A stretch of 44,753 nt of DNA from Candidatus Odinarchaeota archaeon (GCA_048885185.1 JBHLQC010000001.1:1-44753); one strand, 5' to 3'. Positions 3,360 through 44,753 are shown, counted from the first letter of the stretch. Translations and numbers: made by a program. The notes: generated from the letters alone by a model not told the origin.

Positions 3360-3528
3360 TATCTTATTCGGATATGACGGTGACTCTTATGCGTTTGGGC
3401 ATAACCAGCTACATCTCACTATTTAGACTCACTAAAAATGAGAACAAGTGAACTTCCTCCGATTGGGAAAAGGCTTTAAAGTTTAATACTTGTCAAATCA
3501 GCCTATCACATGCAGGTGAATCCGTTAG

Positions 3529-27100: not shown

Positions 27101-27197
27101 TGGCGCGGAGTAAGGGATTTGAACCCTTGCGACCACGAAGGTCACTGGATGACTCGTTCATCTCGAGTCCAGCGCGTTACCGCTCCGCCAACTCCGC
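27101..27197 (-). tRNA. tRNA-Ser(CGA), class II, with an 11-nt canonical intron, CCA encoded
   Basis: The minus strand reads GCGGAGT TG GCGG AGCGGTAA CGC G CTGGA CTCGAG|ATGAACGAGTC|A TCCAG TGACCTTCGTGGTCGC AAGGG TTCAAAT CCCTT ACTCCGC G CCA. The intron lies at 27151-27161. It has a long variable arm and discriminator G73. Confidence 0.85.
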
Positions 27198-29476: not shown

Positions 29477-29554
29477 AGCGGGGTGGGGTAGCCAGGATAT
29501 CCCGCGGGGCTCATAACCCCGAGATCGGTTGTTCAAATCAGCCCCCCGCTACCA
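29477..29554 (+). tRNA. Initiator tRNA-Met(CAU), CCA encoded
   Basis: The structure reads AGCGGGG TG GGGT AGCCAGGATA TCCC G CGGGG CTCATAA CCCCG AGATC GGTTG TTCAAAT CAGCC CCCCGCT A CCA. The A1:U72 pair and three consecutive G:C pairs closing the anticodon stem are archaeal initiator hallmarks. Confidence 0.9.
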
Positions 29555-37374: not shown

Positions 37375-37556
37375 ACCTCCAATATTAGGGTTTCGCAGAA
37401 ATAGTTCTTATCAACTATTCCTTTCAATAAACAAAGTTTAATTTGTTCACAATTGGCGCGTTACTTGTGAACTTCTATTATCATAAATTGATTTAGAGCT
37501 CGTTTTTCTCGTAAAAACAGCCAAATTTAGTATATTTTCTAATCAACAAACACTCA

Positions 37557-37577
37557 CCCCTTTATTTCCACTGGAAC
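37557..37577 (-). promoter_or_regulatory. Origin recognition box ORB1
   Basis: The plus strand reads cccctttatttccactggaac, which is GTTCCAGTGGAAATAAAGGGG on the minus strand. This matches my memory of the archaeal ORB (TTCCAGTGGAAA dyad plus G-string). Confidence 0.8.
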
Positions 37578-37882
37578 TATCCAATTAAGGCTTAAATTCT
37601 TAGAAATTGTAATGAACCCGTGAAGAAACTGTGAACACCTTCTAACTATGGAGAAATTCCTTGAAATAGAAAAAGAAAACCGGAGATAACGTATTTTACA
37701 TAACTAACCAAAACAATCAGAAGAACGCTTTAAATGATAATAGAACTGAAGCAAGTAGAACCAAATAATTAATCAGTGATGCAACACACTCTCTCTTCAC
37801 ACCGTCACACTTTTATTACTGTGAACACGCCTCTCTAGTGGGGACATGGAGAGCCAGCTAGTCACCAGTGGGTGACCCTCCC

Positions 37883-38338
37883 ATGAAAAAACGGAAACAA
37901 AAGATCACCATCGAAGGACTTACCATCGAAGGAAAAACTTGTGACGTAACTATAACTTTTACAGATGGATTACCCTCTTCCATCACCGAATCTTTGGTCA
38001 CAGCTCTCAGTCAATCCGGCACAGAGGTTCCGGCTCACGAGCCCACAACTGAGATACAATCCCTTGATGATGTGGATTCCTGGACTGTGTTTCAAAAAGT
38101 CCGATATATTACTCTTCGTCACTGTCGTCACGGCTGGTTCACTTCTAAAGATATCCAAGAACTCTATGAAAGATCCTTCCACCCACCTCTACGACTAGCC
38201 ACGGCCTCACAATACCTCAAAAGAATGCATGACAATGGTACTCTTACACGTCGTGGATCAGCTGCCCAACGCGAGTATAGAGTTAACATCGAAGACTTAA
38301 CAGAAGAAATTGCTGCTATCCTGGCTACAAAAGTCTAA
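37883..38338 (+). CDS. Small winged-helix protein encoded inside the origin
   Basis: 151 aa counted from ATG 37883; the track ORF starts at GTG 37868. The C-terminal WFTSKDIQELYE...LATASQYLKRMHDNGTLTRRGSAAQREYRV is wHTH-like. A GGTGA Shine-Dalgarno-like sequence lies 7 nt upstream of the ATG. Confidence 0.6.
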   Translation: MKKRKQKITIEGLTIEGKTCDVTITFTDGLPSSITESLVTALSQSGTEVPAHEPTTEIQSLDDVDSWTVFQKVRYITLRHCRHGWFTSKDIQELYERSFHPPLRLATASQYLKRMHDNGTLTRRGSAAQREYRVNIEDLTEEIAAILATKV

Positions 38339-38470
38339 AACAGATTTTTCAATTCCTTTGTCATATGAATAAAATTATGTACTATAGTTATAAACTTTTT
38401 AAGATTGATCAATTGTAGGTAAATTAACAGGGCCTCAGAGATCATTAGAAAACGGAAAATAAATGTCACT

Positions 38471-38490
38471 CCCCTTTATTTCCACTGGAA
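38471..38490 (-). promoter_or_regulatory. Origin recognition box ORB2
   Basis: The sequence cccctttatttccactggaa is identical over 20 nt to ORB1 and has the same orientation. Confidence 0.8.
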
Positions 38491-38674
38491 GTCGAAGGAC
38501 AAAAAAAGTTTGGTCTTGTTTATATATAATTCGAAGAATCTTCCCCAGTTGTTTTCTATTATTGTTATATTAATACTTTACCTTCTCTAACACGTTTTCT
38601 TTAATAGTATAGAAGCTGTTTTTGCGCATTTTCCACTTATTTGAAAGGGTAACAAAAAATCCGACTAAAAAGAA
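38491..38674. other. Putative duplex unwinding element between inverted ORB2 and ORB3
   Basis: This is a 184-nt non-coding stretch with about 29% G+C by my hand count (54/184). It contains tatatata and A/T runs and is bracketed by inverted ORBs. Confidence 0.6.
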
Positions 38675-38695
38675 GTTCCAGTGGAAATTAAGGGG
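38675..38695 (+). promoter_or_regulatory. Origin recognition box ORB3 (inverted relative to ORB1/2)
   Basis: The plus strand reads gttccagtggaaattaagggg. Confidence 0.8.
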
Positions 38696-38708
38696 TATAC
38701 CTAGTCTC

Positions 38709-39002
38709 CTAAGCTACCAGTTGATAGTATACAGAAGGCCTACCACGTTTACCGTTTCGTTCAACATACTTCTCAACAGTTCCGGAGATCAGTAAATTCA
38801 TTAAAGTATCATAGACAGTTGTTCTTGGAATCCCTGTCCTGACGGTAATTTCTCCACGTGTTAATGCACCTTGGTCTCGTAGTAGGCTAGTAATATGATT
38901 TTTGACATCGCCTACCTCAGGTGGACGAGTAGTTGTTCGGGTACGTTGTTTCGTTTTTTGGGTACTGTGGGATGTTCGTTGGGTGGTTCGGGTAGCAGCC
39001 AT
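38709..39002 (-). CDS. Small TrmB/MarR-like winged-helix protein with a basic T/R/Q-rich N-terminal tail, encoded inside the origin
   Basis: 97 aa. The tail is MAATRTTQRTSHSTQKTKQRTRTTTRPPE. The wHTH follows: LTRGEITVRTGIPRTTVYDTLMNLLISGTVEKYVERNGKRGRPSVYYQL. Confidence 0.65.
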   Translation of the reverse strand: MAATRTTQRTSHSTQKTKQRTRTTTRPPEVGDVKNHITSLLRDQGALTRGEITVRTGIPRTTVYDTLMNLLISGTVEKYVERNGKRGRPSVYYQLVA

Positions 39003-39057
39003 AATACCACAACTCTACGTCTAGATAATTTACGGTTATTTATATTAGTTGTGGATA

Positions 39058-39071
39058 ATTTCCACTGGAAC
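39058..39071 (-). promoter_or_regulatory. Mini-ORB4 (dyad core only, no G-string)
   Basis: The plus strand reads atttccactggaac, which is GTTCCAGTGGAAAT on the minus strand. TATCCAC follows in place of a G-run. Confidence 0.6.
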
Positions 39072-39139
39072 TTAATAAATTCAATGAAATAAATGAGTTT
39101 CAGAAAGTAGAAAAAAAGCGAACAACTAATGAAAAATGC

Positions 39140-41464
39140 TTATTGTATCCTGGATCGAGCGACAAGGGCCTGACCCACTGATGTTCCTGCGTCACCGGGT
39201 GGAACTTTGTTATGAACTAGAAACGTAAGACCTTGGTCTTCAATAGTTGTTCGTATAGTTCTTGTAAGAATCTTATTATCTGCAACTCCTCCGGAAAACC
39301 CAATTTTCGATATTCCTTGTTTTTGAGCTGCTTGAGTAGCAATTTCAGCCAGTGCATATCCAAGTACGCGATGTGCAGCATATGCCAGATCGGGAGCATT
39401 GAAGTCGTATTGAAGGTCCATAATTTGCTTAATGAAATTGCTAGTGTCTAAGATTGTTAAGTTACCTTGTTTTTTCTTGGGAATCTGTAGTTTTATTTTG
39501 GAGTTGGCTGAGCCCGTATTTGCAAAAGATTCGAATCGGATGGCAGGCTCACCTTCGTATGTGCGTGTATGACATACTTGGAAGAGTGCAGAAAGTGAAT
39601 CTAGTACTCTTCCTGTACTTGATGTCAGCGGAGTATTGATTTTCTGGTATGCTTGTTTGAGTGCTATTCTCAGCTCTGATGTACCCTGTGGTAAGGCGTT
39701 TTTTGCAATTCCTTTGAAATGATCATATAATTGGTCCTGTGAATAATGCCTTGACAGAATACCGATTAGCATACGGAGTGGGTAATGAGCAGCAAGATCT
39801 CCACCGGGCATGAGCTGTTGTTCCAGATGACCTACACGCTGGTACTTCTGTGCGTTACCTACAAGGATTTCGCCCCCCCAAATTGTATCATCAGGACCAT
39901 ACCCTGCACCATCGCAACAAATAGCGACGATTTCTTCATCCGCTTTGAGTTGGTGATCAGCTAATAGTGCCGCAAGGTGTGCATGGTGGTGTTGTACCCG
40001 GAAAAGTGGTATTTGGTGTTCATCAGATATTTTTTCGCCATATTGAGTTGTGAGAAAATCAGGATGTAAATCGCAGGCAATAGCATCAAAGGTATTTACT
40101 CGAAGAAGTTGTTGGAGATGTGTGAGGCTTTCTTGTAGAAACTGCATTGTCTCTACTGTATCAATATCACCAATGTGCTGTGTTAGATAGATTCGTTTAT
40201 TGTGATAGATTGCTCCAGTGTTTTTTTCCAACGCTCCAAGAGCGAGAATAGGAGGACCAATATTGGCGGTATCAATAGGTTCAGGAGTATAGCCTCTTGA
40301 ACGACGGACAATAAGTGCTTGGTCATAAATTGGAATGATAACCGAGTCATCACATCGTTGGTATATTGTACGGTCATGTGTGAGGAAGTAGTCAGCCATT
40401 TTCATGAATTGTTCTTGGAAGGTTGTAGCGTGGATGAGGGTCGGTAATCCCGCAGGATTTGCGCTAGTCATCACTAATGCAAGATCATCAAGACCTTCAA
40501 ATAATCGTAAATAGATTCCTGAATATGGAAGCATTACGCCAATTGTATTCAATCCAGGTGCTAGTGCTGTGGATAGTGGGAAAGGAGATTTTTGATCCAA
40601 GACTACTATCGGTCGGCGCCAAGAGATCAAGAGCTTTTCTTCATTCTGATTTACTTTTGCATACTGTCTGGTAGCTTGGAGATCTTTTGACATTATGGCC
40701 AAGGGTTTATTGGGTTTTTTCCGTAATTGGCGAAGTCGTTGAGTTGGTTCTTCAAGACTAGCTCTAACTGCAAGATGTATACCTCCTAAGCCCTTTACGG
40801 CAATAATAGCTCCTTCATTCAGAAGCTTCACTGTTTCTTTGAAAACGTCATCGACAATAACGGGTTCTCCACCAGATCCTAACAGTGAAAATTTGGGGCC
40901 ACAGATGGGGCAACAAATGGTTTGGGCGTTATATCTGCGGTCTAATGGATTATCGAACTCTTTTGTGCAATCTTTGCAGAGGGGAAACTCATTCATGGTT
41001 GTGCGTTCTCGGTCATAGGGTGTGTTAGTGATTGTTGTATAGCGTGGACCACAAATAGCACAACAGGTCATTGGATATTGATAATGTCTCGATTTCGGAC
41101 TAGCCATGTCTTTGATACAATCTTCGCACACAGCGATATCAGCTGGAATTACTGAACCACCTGCCTTCTGTTCGTCTTTAGAAATTCGAATCTGAAAGTT
41201 TGTATATTTCCCGGTTGGGGTTCCCCATATTGTGCGGATGCTGTCAATGACGGCAAGATATGGTTTATCTTTTTCAATGGATTCAATGAATTCAATAATT
41301 CTCTTCTTAGCGCCTTCTACAACTATCAAAACAGCAGAATTTCCAGTATTCAAAACGTATCCTAACAAACTACGCTGTGTGGCTTGAGCATAGATAAATG
41401 GACGGAAGCCTATTCCCTGTACAACGCCGACGACACGAATTTCTGCTTGTTGAATGTTAGTCAT
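39140..41464 (-). CDS. hypF: [NiFe]-hydrogenase maturation carbamoyltransferase HypF
   Basis: It has an acylphosphatase domain (IRVVGVVQGIGFRPFIY), two CxxC zinc-finger pairs (CEDCIKD...CAICGPRYT; CKDCTKE...CPICGPKFS), a YrdC-like domain and a Kae1-like domain. The track ORF extends to 41584, but that extension overlaps the divergent gene. ATG 41464 (MTNIQQAEIRV) fits HypF N-termini. Confidence 0.9.
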   Translation of the reverse strand: MTNIQQAEIRVVGVVQGIGFRPFIYAQATQRSLLGYVLNTGNSAVLIVVEGAKKRIIEFIESIEKDKPYLAVIDSIRTIWGTPTGKYTNFQIRISKDEQKAGGSVIPADIAVCEDCIKDMASPKSRHYQYPMTCCAICGPRYTTITNTPYDRERTTMNEFPLCKDCTKEFDNPLDRRYNAQTICCPICGPKFSLLGSGGEPVIVDDVFKETVKLLNEGAIIAVKGLGGIHLAVRASLEEPTQRLRQLRKKPNKPLAIMSKDLQATRQYAKVNQNEEKLLISWRRPIVVLDQKSPFPLSTALAPGLNTIGVMLPYSGIYLRLFEGLDDLALVMTSANPAGLPTLIHATTFQEQFMKMADYFLTHDRTIYQRCDDSVIIPIYDQALIVRRSRGYTPEPIDTANIGPPILALGALEKNTGAIYHNKRIYLTQHIGDIDTVETMQFLQESLTHLQQLLRVNTFDAIACDLHPDFLTTQYGEKISDEHQIPLFRVQHHHAHLAALLADHQLKADEEIVAICCDGAGYGPDDTIWGGEILVGNAQKYQRVGHLEQQLMPGGDLAAHYPLRMLIGILSRHYSQDQLYDHFKGIAKNALPQGTSELRIALKQAYQKINTPLTSSTGRVLDSLSALFQVCHTRTYEGEPAIRFESFANTGSANSKIKLQIPKKKQGNLTILDTSNFIKQIMDLQYDFNAPDLAYAAHRVLGYALAEIATQAAQKQGISKIGFSGGVADNKILTRTIRTTIEDQGLTFLVHNKVPPGDAGTSVGQALVARSRIQ

Positions 41465-41550: not shown

Positions 41551-42150
41551 TTGATGATGAGTGAATTTCGTGTCCCAACGCCAAAGGAACTACAAGAACT
41601 CCGAAAGAAAGTTGGTCTCACGCAAGAGGAACTTGCTGCACGTGTTGGGATTAGTCAGTCTTTAGTTGCACGAATTGAAAAGGGCCAGGTGAATCCAAGC
41701 ATTGTAACACTGAAACGAATTCTTAGTGCAATCGAAGATCAAGAGCAGGTTTCTCCAAGTTTACGCAAGCTGTTGCAGTGGAAAGGTCAAACTACAAAGA
41801 TGCAACAATTAATCGGGGTCAGCCCCGATGACAAAGTACGACGTGCAGTATTACTGATGAGGCGTCATGGAATATCACAACTTCCTGTCATTAAAAAGAA
41901 CAAATCTATTGGGTGTATTAGTGAAGGTACTATAATTCGAAAATTAATGGCCATGGATTCACAGAAAGTCTTCTCATTATCAGTAAATGAAATAATGGAA
42001 GAACCTTGTCCATCAATTGATATTAACGAGAGTGTTGAACTTGCGTTCTCTAAAATCGCTTCCGGCAGTGAGGCATTATTGATTGAGGATCAAGGACGTC
42101 CTGTGGGAATCGTCACTAAGATTGATATAATTGCATTTACACGGATATAG
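41551..42150 (+). CDS. XRE-type HTH plus CBS-pair domain regulator
   Basis: 199 aa with the HTH LTQEELAARVGISQSLVARIEKGQVNPS, followed by two CBS motifs (HGISQLPVIK..., ALLIEDQGRPVGIVTKIDI). Confidence 0.8.
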   Translation: MMMSEFRVPTPKELQELRKKVGLTQEELAARVGISQSLVARIEKGQVNPSIVTLKRILSAIEDQEQVSPSLRKLLQWKGQTTKMQQLIGVSPDDKVRRAVLLMRRHGISQLPVIKKNKSIGCISEGTIIRKLMAMDSQKVFSLSVNEIMEEPCPSIDINESVELAFSKIASGSEALLIEDQGRPVGIVTKIDIIAFTRI

Positions 42151-42265
42151 CACTTGACAACATAATAATTTCAATGAATTCAATAAATTTATCTAGTTTT
42201 ATGGTTTTAATACTATCAATAATCCTTATAATGCAGAACCTACATTTCTCCAAAATAACTGAGGC

Positions 42266-43579
42266 GTGATGAAACTGAGTGAGCTGGATCGATTAGTCGA
42301 ACGAACACAAAAATTCGATCAACAAATGCTTTCAAAATGGGGATTCAAAACAGAGAGAATTGAGCTATTTGGTATTGATTCTGATGAGCTATATGTAGTT
42401 CCAGAGCACGAAGCCCTAGCAATAAAGAGAGCCGTTAACTATCTGCGTAATCAAACAGCTAGTGTGGTCGTATCTGGTCCTTTGGGCGCGGGAAAAACCA
42501 CATTTTTAGAAATGATCCAGCAATCATTGAATCGTCTACCAAATATTCGGGCCATAAGACTTGAAGGTGTTAGTTCGGCTGATGCTCTAATTGATGACCT
42601 GGTTCATGCAAACATTGGAGAACAAACCGTTCGTGATTTTTTAATTGACAGAGTTGGTGTTCGTGTCGTTCGCAGTGGTTCAGTTGCTAAACGGCTTTCC
42701 CGTTTACTATTGGCATTAAGAACCGATGCAGAAGAAAATGGAACCTCATATGTTTTCTTAATCGATGAATTTCGACAACTAGAACGCCAAAGACCTGATA
42801 ATCGTGTACGGATTGTAGATACGCTATTACGAATGGTAAACGATAAAACAAGAGATGGACGTCGATACGTTGTACTAGCCCTAGCAGTAATTACTCGTGT
42901 TGGCGAGAGTGCTATTAAGACTCTTGAAATTCTATCATCAGTTGGAGAAACCTTAGGGCATGGAACCAAGTCTGCTATTCGAAGACGGTTCGTTGAAATC
43001 TATGATATGCGTCGAATGAATAAATCAAGTGCAATGAAAGTCATGCTCTGGAGAATAGCCTACCTCAAAGGTGCAATGGATAAACTGCAATCGAATTCAG
43101 AGGATAGTTTAGATTTTGAATCAGATACAGTGAAAGAGTTACTGTATCCCTTTACGGTTGAAGCACTAGAGGGTATTTTCAGTTATTCTGGTGGGAATCC
43201 CGGGATTATGCTTGAGCTATTATTACGCTGTCTTCAGGATGCAGTTCGTGGTGCTGAAGTTCTTGTAAACGATGGTTACACGCTAGATAATGTTCTATCA
43301 GCATATCAAATAGACTTCAACTATGTTCAACGGTTTGTACAAAAAGAGGTAAAACGGGCAAGAGCAGAATTTTCCTCATTTCAAACTGAGCTTCTGAGTT
43401 TCCTTTCTATTGCACGATCACTTGATGAAATTGAAGACTGGCTACAAATTCATGATAGCTCTTGGGAAAACGTATTGGAGGATTTCGATCTATTTGAAAA
43501 ACAAGGTCTTATCTACAGTCCTGAAGCAGGACGCATTCAGGCCACTGAACTATGGACTAAGGGTTCCACATTTGTGTGA
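42266..43579 (+). CDS. Divergent AAA+ P-loop ATPase (Orc1/Cdc6- or ExeA/TniB-like) with a putative C-terminal winged helix
   Basis: 437 aa with Walker A VVSGPLGAGKTT, Walker B YVFLIDEF, and a sensor-2-like SGGNPGIMLELL. The C-terminus reads LEDFDLFEKQGLIYSPEAGRIQ. The likely start is ATG 42269. Confidence 0.6.
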   Translation: MMKLSELDRLVERTQKFDQQMLSKWGFKTERIELFGIDSDELYVVPEHEALAIKRAVNYLRNQTASVVVSGPLGAGKTTFLEMIQQSLNRLPNIRAIRLEGVSSADALIDDLVHANIGEQTVRDFLIDRVGVRVVRSGSVAKRLSRLLLALRTDAEENGTSYVFLIDEFRQLERQRPDNRVRIVDTLLRMVNDKTRDGRRYVVLALAVITRVGESAIKTLEILSSVGETLGHGTKSAIRRRFVEIYDMRRMNKSSAMKVMLWRIAYLKGAMDKLQSNSEDSLDFESDTVKELLYPFTVEALEGIFSYSGGNPGIMLELLLRCLQDAVRGAEVLVNDGYTLDNVLSAYQIDFNYVQRFVQKEVKRARAEFSSFQTELLSFLSIARSLDEIEDWLQIHDSSWENVLEDFDLFEKQGLIYSPEAGRIQATELWTKGSTFV

Positions 43580-43591
43580 GGTGAATAAAAC

Positions 43592-43960
43592 ATGTCGGCT
43601 ACGGATCTGATAAGAGAACGAATGAAGAAGGAAAAAGAAACTAAACCCAAAAAAGAATCAAAAAAACAAGCACAAGAAACAACTGACATCGAGTTAGACG
43701 AATTATCTTCAAGAGTCGGTGATTCAAGTCTTAAGCGCTTACGCATTGAAAGTGAATACGAAGGACGCAGAACTATAAGTGCAAGCATTCCAGCGTGGAT
43801 CAAAGCCGCCTTAGATTATGTGGCAATTGCTGCAACAAAATCCGGAGAAGGCAAGTATGGTGGGTTTGGTGGTAAATCGCGGTTTATCGCAGAGGCACTC
43901 GAAGAGAAAATAAAATCAGATTTTCCTGAGGTCTTCGAAAAGCTTCAACGCAAATCGTAA
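43592..43960 (+). CDS. Ribbon-helix-helix (CopG/MetJ-like) DNA-binding protein with a lysine-rich N-terminal tail
   Basis: 122 aa. The segment RTISASIPAWIKAALDYVA...SRFIAEALEEKI fits a beta-strand/helix/helix RHH pattern. A GAGGTGA Shine-Dalgarno-like sequence lies 8 nt upstream. The gene starts 12 nt after the ATPase stop. Confidence 0.55.
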   Translation: MSATDLIRERMKKEKETKPKKESKKQAQETTDIELDELSSRVGDSSLKRLRIESEYEGRRTISASIPAWIKAALDYVAIAATKSGEGKYGGFGGKSRFIAEALEEKIKSDFPEVFEKLQRKS

Positions 43961-44097
43961 AGAGTATAAACATAAATATTTTCAATAAAATTAATGAAAT
44001 TATTGAATTCATTCCCTTCAGTTATTTTTCTTTAGTTTCACTTTTAGGGAATCTGCTGCTTATGTTTAATTAGTGGGTGAGTTCCGGAGGCAGCAAA

Positions 44098-44697
44098 ATG
44101 CAAGTAAGCGGCACGAAAAGATTATCGATCGTCTCATTTGATTTCAAGCAGCCTAAAGGATCTAACCAGGCTAGAAAAACACGTTTTTTTCGAGAATTAT
44201 ATGGATACACCCAACAGGTTAAACGACTGTTAAAAAGTGGCAAAGAAATTACTCGCACTTATCATTATTCAGGAATAATGGATCAATTACCGTTTGTTAA
44301 ACTTGGAAAAAGTGTGTTAGGAGTTCAACCTGGTTCAGAAGGTCCTATACTTGAACTGCTTCACAAATTCGATGAAGTCGATTATTACAACTTCATTGGT
44401 TGGGTACCATCAGCGATTTGGACGGTCGTTGAGGATGACAACGTTTTGATGGCTAGTAAACTCATTGCTAGATTGGGTTATCTTTCAGTCCTATTTACGT
44501 TGAATAAGTTTGGAGGAGTTATTCAAGTCGAGGAACTTCTTAACTTCGGTTTCGATGCTGACTATATCAATCAAGCCGTAATTAATTTAGAAAAAAGTGG
44601 CCTTGTGCTTCTGAATCAAGATGTCATTCAGTGTACTGATACTGGAGAAACAGTAGGAACAATCTTGGCTGAGAAAATGAAAGTTTCAGAAATCTAA
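44098..44697 (+). CDS. Hypothetical protein: unknown N-domain (possibly Cas2/VapD-like ferredoxin fold) plus C-terminal wHTH
   Basis: 199 aa counted from ATG 44098, which has GGAGG 7 nt upstream; the track ORF starts at GTG 44077. The N-terminus RLSIVSFDFKQPKGSNQARKTRFFRELYGY weakly recalls the beta1-alpha1 of Cas2/VapD. The C-terminus VEELLNFGFDADYINQAVINLEKSGLVLL is wHTH-like. Confidence 0.45.
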   Translation: MQVSGTKRLSIVSFDFKQPKGSNQARKTRFFRELYGYTQQVKRLLKSGKEITRTYHYSGIMDQLPFVKLGKSVLGVQPGSEGPILELLHKFDEVDYYNFIGWVPSAIWTVVEDDNVLMASKLIARLGYLSVLFTLNKFGGVIQVEELLNFGFDADYINQAVINLEKSGLVLLNQDVIQCTDTGETVGTILAEKMKVSEI

Positions 44698-44753
44698 CGA
44701 TTTTTTGGCTTTCAATAAAGATCCTTATTCGGGTTTTAGGGCAAGTGGTTTGG

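Follow-up and report, generated by a model that had tools for sequence, protein, structure and literature searches.

The right end of a 44,753-nt DNA stretch (GCA_048885185.1, JBHLQC010000001.1:1-44753; the whole stretch is referred to as the window), which is labelled Candidatus Odinarchaeota archaeon, carries three open reading frames (ORFs) on the plus strand, located at positions 42266-43579 (437 amino acids), 43592-43960 (122 amino acids) and 44077-44697 (206 amino acids). The first two encode an orphan AAA+ ATPase and a small tailed protein with a putative ribbon-helix-helix (RHH) core, and they constitute a vertically inherited, origin-proximal two-gene operon of the core chromosome beside an Asgard replication origin (oriC), whereas the third, termed gene 3, is an add-on specific to Hermodarchaeia. 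A first-pass annotation had described the three genes as one module with Shine-Dalgarno-like sites and a 12-nt first spacer, and the ORFs, the spacer and the motifs GGTGA and GGAGG were indeed found. The start codon of the ATPase gene was assigned to the ATG at 42269 because the database copy comprises 436 amino acids, and gene 3 most likely begins at the ATG at 44098 because its relatives comprise 189-199 amino acids and a GGAGG motif is located 8 nt before that ATG. The features of the locus are as follows.

42215..42232, plus strand: degenerate 9-bp unit ATCAATAAT followed directly by TATA-like CCTTATAAT, promoter-proximal, about 40 nt before the ATG of the ATPase gene (10-species alignment)
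42269..43579, plus strand: orphan AAA+ ATPase, 436 amino acids (ORF, Pfam, alignment, AlphaFold model)
43580..43591, plus strand: 12-nt ATPase/RHH spacer ggtgaataaaac carrying the Shine-Dalgarno-like GGTGA (sequence)
43592..43960, plus strand: gene 2, small tailed protein, 122 amino acids (ORF, alignment)
44098..44697, plus strand: gene 3, 199 amino acids, in an ORF that opens at 44077 (AlphaFold model, Foldseek, Pfam)

The ATPase gene, its small partner and gene 3

The spacer between the ATPase gene and gene 2 measures 10-13 nt in ten species and starts with GGTGA (GGTAA in one of them). Even at locus L025 of a metagenome-assembled genome (MAG) labelled Thorarchaeota, the ATPase of which is only 27-28% identical, 11 nt containing GGTGA separate the ATPase gene from the small gene. 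Since this short GGTGA-type spacer is conserved across lineages, genes 1 and 2 were assigned to an operon, and the spacer sequence points to the ATPase and RHH genes being transcribed together and coupled in translation. The columns of the block at 42215..42232 are nearly invariant in the alignment of ten species, and the block may be read as a promoter composed of a B-recognition element and a TATA box. Gene 3 follows 137 nt after gene 2 and probably forms a separate transcription unit; of the elements in between, a T5 tract (44025-44029) may serve as terminator and a conserved TTTTAG box (44043-44048) as promoter. The flanking spacers are AT-rich, as noted before, with a GC content of 26% and 29% versus 42% for the window.

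The ATPase exceeds the cut-off of the Pfam family ATPase_2 (PF01637) only just, with 35.3 versus 33.2 bits, and the match is partial and generic (profile positions 7-155 of 225; 155/225). The Pfam AAA profile scored almost as well (E 1.6e-7), and the PF01637 matches precomputed for homologues of the ATPase are flagged as weak. As ATPase_2 ('ATPase domain predominantly from Archaea') is a broad family with a function-neutral label, this membership is marginal and uninformative. With the NCBIfam profile TIGR02928 of Orc1/Cdc6, the ATPase reached 13.4 bits against a cut-off of 181.3, and it matched neither Cdc6_lid (PF22703) nor WHD_Cdc6 (PF09079) of Pfam, both of which are matched by the two neighbouring Orc1 genes. 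An hhalign comparison with the alignment of the neighbouring Orc1 yielded a probability of 15.6%, with only the region from the P-loop to Walker B being aligned. An ordinary Orc1/Cdc6 paralogue was consequently rejected at the sequence level, only the fold being alike, in agreement with the earlier statement that the ATPase is too diverged for a normal paralogue. An exhaustive HMMER search of 1.84 billion representatives returned three proteins below 1e-10, namely the ATPase family itself, a fragment and the divergent L025 type; the next matches appeared only at about 1e-5, and the weak matches outside the family belong to ATPase_2/AAA_22. Literature searches found no description of the family.

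Among 17 homologues, Walker A (GPLGAGKTT, 71-79) and Walker B (IDEF, 165-168) are invariant, as are T209, the motif RRRF (238-241) just before strand 5 and the motif SGGNPG (307-312). T209 is a candidate sensor 1 and RRRF a candidate arginine finger. The neighbouring Orc1 proteins contain an invariant GDAR motif, whereas SGGNPG, the only glycine-rich lid motif of the ATPase family, lacks the arginine; the divergent L025-type member has SGRNPG in its place. SGGNPG is presumably the positional equivalent of GDAR, in which case the sensor-2 arginine would be replaced.

The AlphaFold (AF2) model of the ATPase, with a predicted local distance difference test score (pLDDT) of 75.7, comprises an AAA+ base, a helical lid and a C-terminal winged helix (winged-helix topology at 370-425). 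The first five Foldseek matches are archaeal Orc1/Cdc6 chains aligned over the full length (E 1e-9 to 3e-8; template modelling (TM) score 0.42-0.50), with 1w5t (A. pernix ORC2), 1w5s and 2qby (S. solfataricus Orc1-1/Orc1-3) as best PDB neighbours, followed by yeast Orc1 and Cdc6 complexes. Altogether, the Orc/Cdc6 chains (E 1e-9 to 2e-6) are placed ahead of STAND, Clp, RuvB and TnsC proteins. Between the strands at 93-101 and 160-168, the model contains three helices (104-112, 121-128 and 139-157) that would be compatible with the initiator-specific helical insertion between beta2 and beta3. The Orc1/Cdc6 layout proposed earlier, with clear Walker motifs and a C-terminal winged helix, is thus retained as a predicted fold, and the ATPase is not a member of the Orc1/Cdc6 family by sequence criteria.

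Gene 2 starts with the peptide MSATDLIRE, which is followed by a variable tail rich in lysine and glutamate and a strongly conserved C-terminal core (Y..R.TISASIP.W.KAALD...GFGGKS.F..EA...K). The lysine-rich tail that had been noted before is real, and the stretch concerned, KKEKETKPKKESKK, is located N-terminally. The core pattern TISASIP / WIKAALD / GFGGKS / RFIAEALE corresponds to strand / helix / G-x-S turn / helix and suggests a core of the RHH type; the RHH-like sequence pattern claimed previously is therefore present, whereas the fold itself gained no support from Pfam, PDB or hhalign.

With respect to gene 3, the AF2 model (pLDDT 90.2) predicts an N-terminal beta-alpha-beta-beta-(hairpin)-alpha-beta domain and a C-terminal winged helix-turn-helix (wHTH) of H-H-H-hairpin topology at residues 114-179. 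Only in the C-terminal ~90 residues did Foldseek find local similarity, to OhrR, MarR and NadR (probability 0.99-1.0), and Pfam HTH_45 was detected in 8/22 members (best E 1e-4), which agrees with the wHTH assigned in the first-pass annotation. The N-terminal domain yielded nothing below 1e-3 in Foldseek searches of PDB and BFVD. A faint resemblance of this domain to Cas2 or VapD had been proposed. A Cas2/VapD/PaaX relation gained no support, none of these families being detected in the 22 members at E <= 10 and no Cas2 or VapD chain occurring among the top PDB or BFVD matches; the predicted topology leaves a distant relation conceivable.

Synteny, conservation and distribution of the locus

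The window is a Hermodarchaeia-type Asgard contig. The ATPase is 98% identical to Hermodarchaeota proteins, including that of the species representative Ca. Hermodarchaeum yapensis, and it has an identical (100%) counterpart in an Asgard MAG that bears the label Candidatus Odinarchaeota archaeon. The Odinarchaeota label seems wrong, because the proteins of the locus are 90-98% identical to those of Ca. Hermodarchaeum yapensis and other Hermodarchaeota MAGs. One relative labelled Thorarchaeota has the same Hermodarchaeial synteny.

The gene order of the region is PolD small subunit / DUF2240 / Orc1-Cdc6 / p151 / TrmB-like / HypF / HTH_3-CBS in its left part and ATPase / small protein / gene 3 / p170 (opposite strand) / XPD / RadB / CarS / OST3 / second Orc1-Cdc6 / RFC in its right part. 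This order was found in every Hermodarchaeial locus examined, i.e. in 14 species-level genomes and up to the end of each contig, except that XPD is missing in two species and that the second Orc1-Cdc6 was not seen at this place in one species or more (L004/L014). At 6-10 kb to the right of the module, most Hermodarchaeial species have this second Orc1/Cdc6 gene together with a small HTH gene and genes for RFC subunits, one of them with an intein (L001 17626-21311).

The conservation of the encoded proteins differs considerably between the genes of this neighbourhood. Identities of the window protein to those of other species amount to 87-92% for Orc1a, 82-86% for the ATPase, 81-88% for Orc1b, 64-86% for the small protein, 69-75% for p170, 69-74% for HypF, 68-75% for the PolD small subunit (one match of 86% spans only 46% of the protein), 62-67% for XPD, 54-65% for RadB and 48-55% for gene 3, the fastest-evolving gene of the neighbourhood. 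Accordingly, the ATPase evolves about as slowly as genuine Orc1/Cdc6 genes. A profile search of 185,579 species-representative genomes detected the ATPase in 14 of them, all Hermodarchaeia-type MAGs; it was performed with a sub-alignment without the P-loop, the full alignment being swamped by the generic P-loop pattern.

These data bear on the view of the first-pass annotation that the locus represents a plasmid-derived or integrated element or else a defence or addiction module of toxin-antitoxin type. An initiator-like ATPase, an RHH protein and a wHTH protein do occur together on archaeal plasmids, e.g. those of the pRN type, the spacers are AT-rich, and an ancient capture is conceivable. 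On the other side, the 10 kb to the right of the window end in relatives contain no integrase, att-type repeat or defence gene and instead continue as core chromosome, and the GC content of the three genes (0.375-0.41) is not anomalous. In PADLOC, the ATPase gave only P-loop-level matches (best E 1.3e-4 over 34 residues) and genes 2 and 3 none; none of the three proteins has a significant PHROG, and searches of plasmid, phage and IMG/VR sequences run with the ATPase returned no relative. As its initiator-like slow evolution is combined with a fixed core synteny in 14 species genomes, the ATPase is not regarded as a mobile or defence gene, and the mobile or defence interpretation as such fails because the neighbourhood is core chromosome and the trio does not co-occur outside Hermodarchaeia, where the ATPase-RHH pair alone is found. 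We consider it extremely improbable.

Outside Hermodarchaeia, two Ranarchaeia loci encode an ATPase of 53-56% identity with the small protein directly downstream and Orc1/Cdc6 adjacent, and locus L024 has the order HTH-CBS / 53-aa ORF / ATPase / small protein / POR. In the Thorarchaeota-labelled L025, the ATPase gene and, 11 nt downstream, a gene for a 104-aa protein are flanked by genes of the p151 and p170 families near the PolD large subunit. The Asgardarchaeia-type loci L007, L026 and L027 contain the small protein, p151, p170, TrmB-like and HTH-CBS genes beside Orc1, and neither the ATPase gene nor a remnant of it was detected at these loci. The ATPase was thus never seen without a small gene directly downstream (5/5 lineage types). 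Gene 3 was rejected as part of the conserved module, since it is absent from L023, L024 and L025, and in Ranarchaeia its position is taken by unrelated genes (14% identity). Because the pair of ATPase and small protein recurs across lineages while gene 3 does not, it is the pair that forms the conserved unit, within an older cluster of origin-linked genes; the operon has so far been found only in Hermodarchaeia, Ranarchaeia, the Thorarchaeota-labelled MAG and one unassigned lineage.

A comparison of the ten loci for which presence or absence of the ATPase is known revealed that the N-terminal peptide of the small protein (MS-x-x-D-[LM]-[IV]-[RK]-[EK]) is present in 7/7 ATPase-linked copies and in 0/3 ATPase-less copies. 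The copies without peptide have cores nearly identical to those of the others, and the TISASIP beta-strand is invariant across lineages, including the ATPase-less loci. The L025 copy has KRISLWL (versus RTISASI) at this presumed DNA-reading strand and keeps the peptide despite its changed DNA-binding core. As presence of the peptide tracks presence of the ATPase, the peptide and tail are suggested to be an ATPase-contact element, by analogy with the tails of SegB, ParG and omega.

The replication origin and the 9-bp repeat arrays

The replication origin was located about 3.6 kb to the left of the ATPase gene because origin recognition box (ORB) elements, an AT-rich stretch and the minimum of the cumulative GC skew (38-39 kb) coincide there. 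Seven ORB matches were obtained where 1.55 were expected, three of them exact, and ORB copies are also among the independently detected repeat families I3-I5, D4 and D8. The inverted pair at 38471/38674 brackets the AT-rich stretch at 38493-38673, and the p151 and TrmB-like genes lie between the ORBs, the canonical form of which is GTTCCAGTGGAAAT.AAGGGGT.

37556..39073, no strand assigned: oriC region (ORB elements, AT-rich stretch, GC skew)
37556-37578, minus strand: canonical ORB element
38471-38492, minus strand: canonical ORB element
38674-38696, plus strand: canonical ORB element
39056-39073, minus strand: canonical ORB element

The distance between ORBs and the ATPase gene is 3.2-4.7 kb in the window and less than 0.4 kb in Ranarchaeia. 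In the latter (L006 11279-11617 and L023 11685-11990), the repeat array behind the RHH gene is followed by an ORB-like element, an AT-rich segment of approximately 150-170 nt and another ORB-like element in inverted orientation; this origin-like unit starts within about 100 nt of the array, abuts the operon and is additional to the ORBs beside Orc1.

The spacers around the module contain arrays of a contiguous 9-bp unit, TTCAWTRAA, in both orientations. The units were also recovered by independent repeat detection as families D1/D2 with a spacing of 9 nt, and the following copies are present in the window.

37423: single unit (repeat scans)
39071..39101, no strand assigned: three-unit array (CTTAATAAA TTCAATGAA ATAAATGAG) on the promoter side of the TrmB-like gene (reference copy of D1/D2)
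42161..42200, no strand assigned: array upstream of the ATPase gene with strong units TTCAATGAA at 42170 and TTCAATAAA at 42179 (families D1/D2, alignment)
43975..44011, no strand assigned: array of 3-4 contiguous units in mixed orientation (TTCAATAAA ATTAATGAA ATTATTGAA TTCATT) in the RHH/gene 3 spacer (repeat scans)
44711..44719, plus strand: one exact unit, TTCAATAAA, downstream of gene 3 and behind a T6 tract (44701-44706) (repeat scans)

The array at 42161..42200, about 100 nt before the start codon of the ATPase gene, is a conserved block in the ten-species alignment, and an array occupies the corresponding position in Ranarchaeia and L024. The array behind the RHH gene has counterparts at this site in the Hermodarchaeial species compared, and both Ranarchaeia loci have one immediately downstream of the RHH stop codon. 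Arrays beside the operon, upstream of the ATPase gene and after the RHH gene, are found in all ATPase lineages with a TISASIP-type core. The array at 39071..39101 abuts and slightly overlaps the ORB at 39056-39073; a similar juxtaposition is seen in L017 and in the Asgardarchaeia locus L007, where the array is located 6 nt from the ORB. Other Hermodarchaeial species have arrays at the same places and additionally in the convergent gene 3/p170, the p170/XPD and the XPD-RadB spacers; in several of them, the gene 3/p170 spacer has a full array where the window has a single unit.

Arrays were assessed by a phase-aware mismatch count against Markov nulls, with at least three in-phase units and at most three mismatches being required. 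By this test, 5-7 arrays per 20-kb Hermodarchaeial locus were detected at syntenic positions, compared with 0.0 in simulations, even at the composition of a 27%-GC spacer. No array was found in the ~38 kb of the window to the left of oriC, and none beyond RadB in the 20-kb loci. Three in-phase units at 41273-41299 lie within the minus-strand HypF gene, are conserved in all Hermodarchaeial species and correspond to the codons of IIEFIESIE. This array lies about 250 nt away from where HTH-CBS starts. It could reflect a coincidence of coding or a gene-embedded binding site, and it was not counted as a site because the IIEFIESIE codons explain it at least in part.

A strict regular expression had detected no arrays in L007, which suggested that arrays depend on the ATPase; the phase-aware scan, together with L026 and L027, refuted this idea: all three ATPase-less loci have TTCAWTRAA arrays directly upstream of the small gene. 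The arrays hence follow the small protein rather than the ATPase or gene 3, since they are present in ATPase-less loci that have the TISASIP-type core, and they are probable binding sites of the gene 2 protein. L025, with its altered core, contains differing repeats, TAATACATTAT and the palindrome GGAATACAATATTGTATCC, at 1358-1427, 2954-2984 and 3472-3507, i.e. upstream of the ATPase gene, after the RHH gene and in the promoter of the p170-family gene.

The proximity of operon, arrays and ORBs raises the possibility that the ATPase is a third, highly diverged Orc/Cdc6-type protein acting at oriC, in licensing, MCM loading or inhibition of re-initiation, and that the RHH protein positions it by the ORBs. 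The predicted Orc1/Cdc6-like fold and an evolutionary rate matching those of Orc1a and Orc1b are in line with this idea. Moreover, the operon is located beside Orc1 and ORBs in four different neighbourhoods, and ORBs are adjoined by arrays in Hermodarchaeia and Asgardarchaeia; in Ranarchaeia, an ORB/AT-rich/ORB unit comes after the array. Membership of the Orc1/Cdc6 family is nevertheless not detectable in the sequence (TIGR02928, Cdc6_lid, WHD_Cdc6, hhalign 16%), the sensor-2 arginine appears to be replaced (SGGNPG), related lineages with the same origin layout do without the ATPase, and most arrays reside in gene promoters, away from the AT-rich stretch between the inverted ORBs. A dedicated origin factor is therefore considered quite unlikely.

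A proposed adaptor scheme and its alternatives

In the general scheme that we favour, and to which we give an even chance, the RHH protein acts as an adaptor that tethers the Orc-like ATPase to repeats flanking the origin. RHH dimers would bind the TTCAWTRAA arrays before the operon, after the RHH gene, against the ORBs and in most spacers of a replication and repair island of ~8 kb (those of the TrmB-like gene, gene 3, p170, XPD and RadB). The N-terminal peptide and tail would recruit or stimulate the ATPase, in the manner of the SegB, ParG and omega tails, and the ATPase, with its Walker A/B motifs and candidate arginine finger, would assemble on these sites in an ATP-dependent manner, its winged helix contacting neighbouring DNA. 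The operon might thereby be autoregulated and the island co-regulated, and an organised nucleoprotein domain might form at one flank of the origin. Gene 3 would represent a later Hermodarchaeia addition, a separately transcribed wHTH protein behind one array. The array-binding role of gene 2, the tail-ATPase contact and the biological output are all parts of this scheme that we infer, whereas the order and conservation of the genes, the isolated position of the ATPase family, the origin, the arrays and both co-occurrence patterns were observed.

Three outputs are about equally compatible with the data: control of local transcription, for which Orc1-2 and aCcr1-3 provide precedents, direct action at oriC and a SegAB-like segregation. 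Regulation is favoured because the arrays are located at promoter-like distances and because the RHH gene and the arrays persist without the ATPase, and arguments for a structural or origin role are that one array occupies a convergent spacer lacking promoters, that arrays touch ORBs and that a tail would act on an NTPase. In Sulfolobales, Orc1-2 is a protein of the Orc1/Cdc6 family that regulates transcription of repair genes upon DNA damage (PMC12490963), and aCcr1-3 are small RHH cell-cycle regulators that bind short palindromes in the promoters of genes for replication, segregation and division (bioRxiv 10.1101/2025.10.16.681758). The arrays described here likewise precede XPD, RadB and other genes of the island, whereas Orc1-2 and aCcr1-3 belong to another lineage, recognise other motifs and act genome-wide and singly rather than as an ATPase-RHH operon.

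Compared with archaeal Orc1/Cdc6 proteins, the ATPase shares the predicted AAA+ base, lid and winged helix, intact Walker A/B motifs, basic residues at the arginine-finger position, a gene location beside oriC and the slow rate of genuine Orc1 genes. It differs in that profile similarity is confined to the segment from P-loop to Walker B, the Cdc6 lid and WHD profiles being unmatched, in having SGGNPG instead of the GDAR sensor-2 arginine, in being always paired with a small tailed protein and in its confinement to a few Asgard lineages.

The layout of the operon also resembles that of SegAB of Sulfolobales and of the type Ib plasmid partition pairs ParF-ParG and delta-omega, in which a tailed RHH protein is encoded beside an NTPase, repeats are located upstream of the operon and the tail activates the NTPase; in the case of SegAB, SegB has an unstructured N-terminus that stimulates SegA, and the palindromes it binds are situated just upstream of segA (PMC8682754). 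Gene 2 has the same layout, with a putative RHH core, the repeats are positioned likewise, and the tail peptide is found together with the ATPase. The locus might encode a segregation machine in which the RHH protein is the centromere-binding protein, the arrays are the centromere and the Orc-like AAA+ ATPase replaces the ParA-type motor. Such a reading could draw on the presence of tail and putative RHH core with an NTPase partner in one operon, for which SegB is a precedent (PMC8682754), as well as on the clustering of repeats upstream of the operon and within ~8 kb beside oriC, including a promoter-less convergent spacer. The ATPase, however, is of the AAA+ type with a predicted Orc-like fold and the classical GxxGxGKT P-loop (GPLGAGKT) rather than the deviant Walker A KGGxxK[ST], and it has no ParA, CbiA or SegA profile match; gene 2 lacks sequence similarity to SegB, ParG and omega; and the arrays consist of 9-bp units that extend over ~8 kb of promoters, mostly at promoter-like distances from start codons. 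Persistence of the RHH gene and the arrays without the ATPase fits a regulator better than half a motor system, and we know of no partition system that is driven by an AAA+ ATPase. On balance, segregation is judged an unlikely function.

It might also be argued that the genes are coincidental neighbours, gene 2 encoding an ordinary autoregulated repressor, the arrays serving HTH-CBS, p170 or the TrmB-like protein and the ATPase having an unrelated role. Several uncharacterised DNA-binding proteins are conserved in the same region, array binding by gene 2 is putative, and the RHH gene and arrays occur without the ATPase, all of which could be accommodated by this explanation. It is very unlikely nonetheless, considering that the coupled spacer of 10-13 nt is kept at 27-28% ATPase identity, that the tail peptide is found only where the ATPase is present and that the ATPase is always accompanied by a small gene downstream, in 5/5 lineage types.

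A number of observations weigh against the adaptor scheme. The Orc1/Cdc6 likeness derives from a medium-confidence model (pLDDT 75.7, TM about 0.46-0.50). The RHH fold of gene 2 was not signalled by Pfam, PDB or hhalign: the Pfam RHH families match 0/17 members, and hhalign comparisons with CopG, Arc, omega, ParG and Mnt were no better than shuffled controls, so that the fold is proposed from the sequence pattern. Arrays in the window are weaker than in its relatives, with only one intergenic array passing the three-unit test, and the array survey spans ~20 kb per genome, arrays elsewhere in the genomes being possible. As the HypF case illustrates, coding sequence can give rise to such arrays or be confounded with them. 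The repeat evidence from L025 is weak because the repeat families are present in two copies only, and p170, p151, the TrmB-like protein and HTH-CBS, all conserved in the same neighbourhoods, are each a possible array binder. Finally, the number of independent events linking tail and ATPase is small (perhaps one or two), because the ATPase-less loci probably form one clade.

A more far-reaching interpretation, to which we attach a low probability, is that the ATPase, as an Asgard-specific sequence-orphan of the Orc/Cdc6 structural class, constitutes a second kind of origin-associated AAA+ subunit that is brought by an RHH adaptor to the arrays next to ORBs and works with Orc1 or as the first AAA+-driven partition or origin-organising machine. 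If true, cooperation with Orc1 would represent a prokaryotic step towards a heteromeric, partly degenerate assembly akin to an origin recognition complex (ORC). The parts of the system are of known kinds (AAA+ ATPase, RHH-like adaptor, iterated sites), and the arrays are a new finding. To our knowledge, no described system has, within a core origin region, an Orc-fold ATPase coupled with a tailed RHH protein and repeat arrays next to ORBs, and literature searches for a system combining these three elements found none. A 2025 survey of Asgard replication proteins counts ORC2-5 among what the last eukaryotic common ancestor gained and makes no mention of the ATPase family (PMC12680538). What makes the locus attractive is an undescribed protein of Orc-like predicted fold that evolves as slowly as an initiator, is encoded at the origin side and always together with a tailed partner, and is accompanied by a conserved repeat touching the ORBs. 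Two small recombinant proteins and a 27-bp DNA site are at hand as defined components for biochemistry that could reveal a new form of archaeal origin control or organisation. Moreover, the origin of Hermodarchaeia is mapped, along with four uncharacterised origin-linked families, i.e. the ATPase, the RHH protein, p151 and p170.

The remaining genes of the neighbourhood that are relevant in this context are listed below.

37868-38338, plus strand: p151, no Pfam match, winged-helix-like C-terminus
about 38710-39003, minus strand: TrmB-like gene, 97 amino acids, between ORBs
41551..42150, plus strand: HTH_3 and CBS-domain protein (Pfam, synteny)
L001 12459-12971, just past the right end of the window, minus strand: p170, no Pfam match

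The p151 gene always adjoins the Orc1/ORB spacer, in Hermodarchaeia, Ranarchaeia, Asgardarchaeia and the Thorarchaeota-labelled locus, with 33-47% identity between lineages. The p170 gene is kept beside the ATPase-RHH or RHH genes in 6/6 lineage types (34-47% identity), and its product is a candidate for a further component or for the true array binder. In several Asgard lineages, the HTH_3-CBS gene is conserved next to the ATPase-RHH (or RHH) genes, on their upstream side, and it may encode a ligand-sensing regulator of the locus; its ORF overlaps the longest HypF ORF, and HypF is called about 40 amino acids shorter in relatives. Further to the left, ARAGORN predicted a 97-nt tRNA-His with the anticodon 'atg' at 27101-27197 on the minus strand, which probably carries an intron and for which Rfam confirms a tRNA, as well as a tRNA-Met at 29477-29554 on the plus strand, which Rfam did not report at the gathering threshold.

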